A DNA stretch of 64,000 bases from a bacterium (lineage in GTDB: Bacteria; Chlamydiota; Chlamydiia; Chlamydiales; SM23-39). The position numbers and the translations under genes are program-made. The notes below the pieces were generated by a model. It did not search any database. It worked only from the letters and a program-made list of their open reading frames with translations, and was not told the DNA's origin. The stretch spans positions 70,171-134,170 of the forward strand of contig JAJXVT010000001.1 in assembly GCA_021781995.1 (NCBI GenBank), written 5' to 3'. Below are positions 26,719 to 26,896 of the stretch, one piece after another (the first letter of the stretch is position 1; every line of letters begins with the position of its first letter).

Positions 26719-26778
26719 CCCAAATTTCTACAAAAGATGCAAGAAAAAAACGAGTTTATGCTATTGTTTTTCACAAAA

Positions 26779-26889
26779 GAGGTAATTGTACAACTCCAGC
26801 CCCCAGAAAAATTGATGATTTTGAGGCCGGTTACGGAACCCGCCTCAAAAGGGCAATTTTGCTGGGGGCTGGAGTTTTGCAACTACCTC
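26779..26889. mobile_element. Full-length 111-bp palindromic MITE-like element (copy A), GAGG...CCTC ends
   Basis: Left end gaggtaattgtacaactccagccccca versus the reverse complement of the right end gaggtagttgcaaaactccagccccca (24/27). The interior arms are also inverted. Flanked by AAAA on both sides (26775-26778 and 26890-26893). Confidence 0.7.
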
Positions 26890-26896
26890 AAAAGGG

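Follow-up and report, generated by a model that had tools for sequence, protein, structure and literature searches.

The window, by which we mean the whole 64-kb stretch of DNA analysed here, contains a divergent pair of genes, a pknD-like gene for a Ser/Thr protein kinase and trpS for tryptophanyl-tRNA synthetase, and most of the spacer between them is taken up by a palindromic element of 111 bp. The element had originally been noted from the sequence as MITE-like. Its coordinates are given in Table 1, together with those of its arms, its flanking duplications, the related sequences elsewhere in the window, and the genes concerned.

Table 1. Positions of the palindromic element in front of trpS, of related sequences in the window, and of the genes concerned.
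Feature	Position	Strand	Details
pknD-like Ser/Thr protein kinase, 935 aa	23911..26718	-	Pfam Pkinase, E 1e-47
AAAA, left 4-bp target-site duplication of copy 1	26775..26778	.	
Copy 1, 111-bp palindromic MITE, GAGGTAATTG...CAACTACCTC	26779..26889	.	pknD-trpS spacer; family profile E 5e-14
Copy 1, outer arms	26779-26814 / 26854-26889		36 nt, 89% complementary; sequence reading and repeat finder
Copy 1, inner arms	26819-26832 / 26837-26850		14 nt, 93% complementary; sequence reading and repeat finder
AAAA, right 4-bp target-site duplication of copy 1	26890..26893	.	spacer aligns with the L028 empty site once 26779-26893 is excised
trpS, tryptophanyl-tRNA synthetase, 337 aa	26903..27916	+	Pfam tRNA-synt_1b, E 3e-54
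menH, SHCHC synthase, alpha/beta hydrolase, 237 aa	48194..48907	-	Pfam Abhydrolase_6/1; element-derived segment inside
Copy 2, 92-bp derivative, one half partly deleted	48741..48832	-	in frame in menH; TATG at 48737-48740 and 48833-48836
Decayed solo arm, intergenic	2969..3021	-	nhmmer E 1e-4 against family profile; local alignment
35-bp internally deleted remnant	20265..20299	+	terminus GAGGTAG fused to right arm CTGGGCGCTCAAGTTTTACAACTGCCTT, near that of copy 2; weak nhmmer match
46-bp perfect palindrome, ATAGAGGTAGTTCTCTAATTGCG and its reverse complement	29782..29827	.	between ShlB/FhaC-type transporter gene and 180-aa ORF

On the minus strand the pknD-like gene starts at 26718, and the element begins 60 nt upstream of that start. 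Gene callers place the start of trpS at the ATG at 26903, which puts the end of the element 13 nt upstream and makes the spacer between the two genes 184 nt long; an SD-like GGGA stands at 26894-26897. The original prediction gave a spacer of 178 nt and a distance of 7 nt to the ATG. Those figures are right for the ATG at 26897, but an exact protein look-up for the product from that codon comes back empty, and the only recorded product is the one that begins at 26903, which is the likely start.

The element, which we call copy 1, runs from GAGG to CCTC and is a near-perfect palindrome. It had been credited with 27-nt terminal inverted repeats, complementary at 24 of 27 positions, and with an inverted interior that would let the whole unit fold into one hairpin. 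The 27-nt repeats prove to be the outer portion of the 36-nt arms, and the hairpin is borne out both by the arms and by RNA folding of either strand. That is, the predicted RNA fold is a single hairpin on both strands, at -72.2 kcal/mol (z -9.9) on one and -72.1 kcal/mol (z -10.6) on the other, and 0 of 200 shuffled sequences is equally stable. In the minimum-free-energy and centroid folds alike, the left half pairs with the right half to form one continuous stem. Folded as single-stranded DNA, the unit is assigned -42.5 kcal/mol (z -11). Three ORFs had also been described as read-throughs of the element; the description suits 26685-26927 and 26737-27012, whereas 26883-27140, on the minus strand, touches only its last 7 nt.

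Copies of the element and the structure of the family

Some 73 kb of the source genome were available for our census of copies. We built a profile HMM of the family from six copies and searched it with nhmmer in about 430 kb of loci. In the 73 kb of the source genome we find two bounded copies, together with two remnants and a further terminus. One bounded copy lies in front of trpS and the other within menH; the remnant at 20265-20299 agrees with the consensus right arm at 24 of 28 positions. The further terminus is found in the Logan contig L045, which reaches 2.9 kb past the left end of the window and stops 29 nt into another copy, GAGGTAATTGCAAAACTGC. Altogether three independent short-read contigs break inside copies, namely L045, L003 (at window position 48803) and L027 (at 26796), as would be expected of a dispersed repeat, since assemblers behave in this way at such sequences.

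The 46-bp perfect palindrome at 29782-29827 has only the 9-nt terminus GAGGTAGTT in common with the MITE family, and it is flanked by ATA and TAT. It is possibly a minimal derivative of the family, or else a coincidence. As a separate matter, the 35-bp remnant contains the called TTG start of a giant ORF of 3124 aa (10909-20283, minus strand), which is DUF3638-containing in one contig; this start is probably an artefact of gene calling.

Copies occur in other genomes as well. A genome collection, with the source species outside its representatives, was scanned with a degenerate terminus of 22 nt. The scan returns 14 loci, only 3 of them real and all 3 from a single Rhabdochlamydiaceae MAG. The other loci show the match pattern alone, in about the number expected by chance, and were rejected. 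The MAG, DAHXNQ01, represents another species and carries two 183-bp copies (L006 and L008) and a solo terminus in L010. Among the 13 loci returned by a scan of metagenomes, only the contig L042 is real, the rest being chance matches to the pattern. L042 contains two copies of 183-184 bp and further fragments, distributed over three intergenic spacers in 12.5 kb, and its housekeeping genes include cydAB, folP, cdaA and pyk. The element is not found in a scan of viral contigs, and BLAST against plasmid and phage collections gives no similar sequence. The copy census proposed with the original prediction has thus turned up further copies both in about 73 kb of the source genome and in two other genomes.

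The family is dense in the genome from which L042 derives, with at least four pieces in 12.5 kb. In the cydA-folP spacer of this contig (3600-3720), a lone right terminus, TTTTGCAACTGGCTC, lies about 40 nt from a degenerate left arm. These pieces look like the remains of older insertions.

When the complete copies are aligned, the terminus GAGGTAGTTGCAAAACT is conserved in 6 of 6. The arms common to all copies can be written as GAGGTAGTTGCAAAACT..AGC....GAAAAATCGAtGATTTTG on the left and CAAAAGGGCGATTTT...AGTTTTGCAACTACCTC on the right. A further core of about 75 nt is present in the long forms and includes a GAGA-capped hairpin, CCTACCC-GAGA-GGGTAGG, followed by CGAGGA; examples are L008 1360-1410 and L042 4640-4690. 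Because the 183-bp form of the relatives has this extra core, we read the 111-bp unit as probably a core-deleted derivative of a long form of about 183 bp. Its earlier description as full-length is therefore apt within the source genome, but it does not extend to the relatives. A hammerhead-like motif, CUGACGAG, in the core of L006 and L008 was considered and rejected: L042 does not conserve it, it lacks the GAAA core, and the L042 long form has no Rfam match.

Target-site duplications and empty orthologous sites

The 4-bp flanks match at all four positions in 4 of the 6 complete copies, where they read AAAA, TATG, TTCT and TAAT. These four perfectly flanked copies are all the complete copies of the two closer lineages. 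By an empirical estimate for the window, flanks at this spacing agree at all four positions by chance with a probability of 0.0054 per site. Flanks are imperfect in the two copies of L042, one of which matches at 3 of 4 positions in register, while the other has a 3-bp TTG in common. The AAAA on either side of copy 1 had originally been taken for a 4-bp target-site duplication, and the three other complete copies with differing, perfectly matched 4-bp flanks bear out this reading.

The valS-nudix-pknD/trpS gene order is kept in relatives, and the orthologous spacers can therefore be compared with that of the window. In L028, the nearest sampled relative (TrpS 86% identical), the spacer is about 70 nt long and lacks the element. 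The spacer of L030 (TrpS 80% identical) also lacks it and is 53 nt long, and that of L029 (TrpS 82% identical) holds an unrelated ORF of 168 aa. About 55 kb around trpS in these three relatives contain no copy. If we remove the element and one AAAA from the window spacer, what is left aligns with the L028 spacer over its full length, from pknD to trpS, and includes the conserved blocks GCAAGAAAAAA and TTATGCT. This comparison had been proposed as a check on the original prediction, and its outcome is that the gene order is the same and the sequence is absent rather than conserved. The insertion can accordingly be placed in an AAAA of a pknD-trpS spacer of formerly about 70 nt, at some time after the split from the nearest relative. 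All 8 of the 8 contigs with identical TrpS, which come from several samples, carry the element, and it is fixed in the sampled population.

Some observations on these loci may be recorded separately. L028, with its empty site, and L024, from the species of the window, come from the same metagenome sample (ENA ERZ27233573). An IS630-type DDE_3 fragment lies near trpS in L028 (10280-10777), and an IS605 OrfB/TnpB gene lies directly downstream of trpS in L030 (11015-12136). In both L028 and L030 there are -10-like hexamers 6-7 nt before the trpS start. Leaderless expression of trpS in the relatives was considered and set aside; L029 has a normal SD.

Given the other copies, the 4-bp duplications and the empty orthologous spacers, we regard the palindrome as a mobile repeat and not as a regulator specific to trpS. 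It is shorter than about 300 bp, has no coding capacity for a transposase, ends in terminal inverted repeats and is accompanied by a duplication of fixed length; its copies are multiple and dispersed, and they are present or absent at orthologous sites (pknD-trpS and menH). These are the characteristics of a MITE. Thus, we conclude, with a probability of roughly 0.85, that the 111-bp palindrome is a non-autonomous transposable element (MITE), the family of which is so far known from a small number of genomes of uncultured chlamydia-like bacteria, including one that bears the label Rhabdochlamydiaceae. The main claims of the original prediction hold, in that further copies exist and the relatives are without the sequence.

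The palindrome might instead be a leader RNA dedicated to trpS, such as a T-box, an attenuator or a riboswitch-like structure, or a local inverted duplication that arose by chance. In some bacteria trpS is under T-box or attenuation control, and directly before the start codon, where the element lies, is where such a leader would be expected. The same sequence, however, stands at unrelated loci and in other genomes, it is absent before trpS in the relatives, and it is bounded by a duplication. Across the whole window, moreover, no Rfam family reaches its gathering score, T-box models included, and the matches at the element are only to generic miRNA hairpins, at 20-29 bits against thresholds of 72 or more. 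We consider this origin extremely improbable. An Rfam scan of the long form, run on that of L042, likewise gives no match at E <= 1.

The element at trpS and in menH

What does a mobile element do in so short a spacer? A consensus scan of both strands detects no sigma-70-like promoter, with a threshold of 9 of 12 matches, in the element or in the spacer. The single promoter match in the region, at 26649-26677, lies inside pknD and would transcribe trpS through the element. Should transcription of trpS still begin in the conserved left part of the spacer, or farther upstream, the element would be transcribed as part of the leader. It would there fold on itself into the hairpin of -72 kcal/mol, leaving the SD and the AUG as accessible as before.

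The original prediction had raised the possibility that the stem occludes the ribosome-binding region. The SD-like GGGA comes 5 nt after the end of the stem at 26889, and neither the SD nor the AUG pairs with the stem. By the partition function, the probability that the SD is unpaired is 0.20 with the element and 0.20 without it for a distal 5' end, and 0.72 versus 0.61 for a proximal one. Since the SD and AUG are about equally accessible in the two cases, occlusion is not supported thermodynamically. There may be a kinetic or steric effect at trpS, or processing by RNase III. A scan finds no intrinsic terminator at the element: on the plus strand the stem is followed by AAAAGGG. The sequence after the hairpin on the minus strand, TTTTGTG, bears a weak likeness to a terminator and is directed towards pknD. 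The element at trpS is most likely a tolerated passenger, and any effect it has there, be it on mRNA stability, through RNase III processing or through steric hindrance of ribosome loading, would be secondary.

It is also conceivable that an element of mobile origin has since been domesticated and now controls trpS, pknD or both, by way of a promoter or -35 box, of a 5' hairpin or RNase III site that makes the mRNA more or less stable, or of insulation between the divergent genes. Each terminus contains TTGCAA, a potential -35 box, and the element takes up 111 nt of the 184-nt spacer that separates two divergent genes of essential type. It is fixed and identical in the 8 contigs of the species from different samples, and its hairpin is extremely stable and is kept across subtypes by compensatory changes (see below). 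Furthermore, Correia and ERIC elements are known to act in this manner in other bacteria (PMC10969869). Against these points we must set the lack of a promoter with at least 9 of 12 matches in element or spacer, the unchanged accessibility of SD and AUG, and the fact that relatives manage without the element. Other copies, too, lie in unrelated contexts, one of them inside a gene, and fixation in one sampled population is little proof of function. On balance we judge domestication unlikely, and a MITE carried along in front of trpS remains our reading of the locus.

The copy inside a gene is copy 2. JGI names the database homologues of the product of 48194-48907 as SHCHC synthase (MenH), and the gene lies in a menaquinone cluster, adjoining menB, menA, menC and menE. 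The insert lies at 48737-48836; the 92-bp element and a 4-bp duplication together make 96 bp, equal to 32 codons, and the reading frame through them is open. The element-derived segment of the protein (about 34-35 residues) has no counterpart in 14 orthologues, which are 37-52% identical in the alignment. The catalytic residues S78 (in the nucleophile elbow GYSMGG), D196 and H219 are invariant. In the AlphaFold2 model (pTM 0.82), pLDDT exceeds 90 for 167 residues and falls below 50 only for residues 25-59, which are the insert. Modelled in this way, the insert apparently forms a disordered loop on an intact enzyme. A 111-bp copy with its duplication would add 115 bp and shift the menH frame; we infer that either a variant shorter by 19 bp was inserted or a later deletion restored the frame. 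In the same cluster (48934-51491, minus strand), two other genes stand between menD and menH: one encodes a protein of 669 aa that has no Pfam domain, the other a leucine-rich-repeat protein of 183 aa.

Insertion in frame within protein genes has been described for the Rickettsia palindromic elements, or RPEs (PMC10969869, PMC1458961). In R. bellii 53 of 526 RPEs are in genes (PMC1458961), and in R. conorii there are 44 in-gene integrations (PMC10969869). The present family is similar in being a palindromic repeat in an obligate intracellular lineage, and its menH copy adds about 32 residues at a loop. One might therefore suppose that its main niche, too, is in-frame insertion into protein genes, and that the intergenic copy is incidental. 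Copy 2 is in frame in an apparently intact enzyme, and copy 1, of 37 codons, is open in 3 of 6 frames, one of which is the menH frame. Yet three open frames over 37 codons are not far from chance, only 1 of about 10 copies and fragments is inside a gene, and the 183-bp forms have stop codons in 6 of 6 frames. We also searched 5.8 billion proteins with an element-peptide profile, concatenated from three frame families, and found no match at E <= 10; the search yielded 95 candidates with shared words, and it is weak for matches of about 30 residues. RPEs differ, moreover, in belonging to another phylum and in having no known sequence relationship to the family described here, which has clear 4-bp duplications, in-gene copies only as the exception, and no conserved element peptide detected in protein databases. 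A coding niche of the RPE type thus seems to us quite improbable, and we treat the menH copy as one insertion of a mainly intergenic MITE.

Known palindromic repeats and the mobilising enzyme

The family is a new one of a known kind, the MITEs, and not a new mechanism. Its closest parallels are ERIC/IRU in enterobacteria, Correia/NEMIS in Neisseria and RUP in Streptococcus pneumoniae. Like these, it consists of non-coding units of about 100-180 bp with terminal inverted repeats and short duplications; they are mostly intergenic, often near start codons, and give co-transcribed stable hairpins; and they fall into full-length and internally deleted size classes. The typical duplication of ERIC and Correia is TA, in contrast to the variable AT-rich 4 bp found here. 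From the known MITEs that fold end to end, the family differs in showing no sequence similarity in plasmid and phage collections or in Rfam, and in having environmental chlamydia-like bacteria as its hosts. In the literature we find no MITE family described in Chlamydiae; only IS elements are discussed, for Rhabdochlamydia.

A hairpin of about 100 nt also calls to mind the REPINs, in which two inverted REPs are mobilised by a RAYT, a tyrosine (HUH) transposase of the IS200/IS605 type that recognises a GTAG-tagged hairpin. The present unit resembles such a doublet, with GTAG in the terminus GAGGTAGTT and thus near each end, and an IS605 OrfB/TnpB gene adjoins trpS in L030. Insertion of the HUH type, however, makes no target-site duplications, whereas 4-bp duplications are present here. 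The arms are not individually short palindromes, as single REP hairpins would be, but form one continuous stem; L030 itself has no copy of the element; no Y1 transposase domain occurs among the annotated window genes, and no RAYT in 64-73 kb. Mobilisation of this kind is, in our estimation, very improbable.

Because of the 4-bp duplication we favour a DDE transposase over a RAYT or other HUH enzyme. A DDE-type transposase supplied in trans would have moved the element by a staggered cut of 4 bp. Part of the IS5 family makes 4-bp target duplications and has termini that begin with GA or GG, although 4-bp duplications are also made by other IS families. With its 4-bp duplication and GAGG ends, the element resembles IS5-like DDE insertion sequences; it differs in that no transposase gene with matching termini was found. 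An IS5-like partner is a guess, to be used as a lead. Among the annotated window genes, all of them housekeeping, there is no transposase or RAYT domain, and an autonomous element with the same termini is found neither in the approximately 430 kb of loci nor in the plasmid, phage and viral collections. Between the arm fragments of L042 there is likewise no parent IS, only folP.

Every subtype is predicted to fold end to end, as copy 1 does: L008 at -115 kcal/mol (z -12.5) and the first copy of L042 (L042a) at -99 kcal/mol (z -10.7). At 13 of the 52 consensus pairs the subtypes differ by double compensatory changes, including pairs in the inner stems outside the termini. Such changes could result from co-evolution of the ends with the transposase, from homogenisation of the two palindrome arms, or from selection on an RNA or DNA hairpin. 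They are suggestive only, coming from three independent lineages, of selection on the structure beyond what transposase binding requires, and hence of some function. A bolder proposal would be that the family is a structure-selected palindromic element of environmental Chlamydiae, in which the core hairpin acts as an RNA (for example as a small RNA, or as a signal for RNA processing or stability) and which seeds peptides into enzymes, as in MenH, making it an independent counterpart of the RPEs. We hold this to be decidedly doubtful.

MITEs are common in bacteria, and the family described here shows present or past activity of small non-autonomous elements in the genomes of environmental chlamydia-like bacteria. 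Such elements remodel the short promoter regions of essential genes, in this case trpS and pknD, and their absorption into the reading frame of an enzyme is possible, as menH illustrates and as is seen in Rickettsia. There is a practical side as well: the repeat breaks metagenome assemblies, as in the three contigs above, and it creates spurious ORFs and wrong start codons.

One further observation concerns the neighbourhood of trpS. Two ENA contigs from different samples (L025 and L026) are circular permutations of the same 4951-bp segment of the window, 24334-29284, which contains the N-terminal part of pknD, the element, trpS and three small ORFs. The two contigs have in common a novel junction that joins 29284 to 24334 and at which there is no repeat, and L024 ends at 29279. 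The segment could be duplicated in tandem, it could exist as a circle in a subpopulation, or the junction could be an artefact of assembly.
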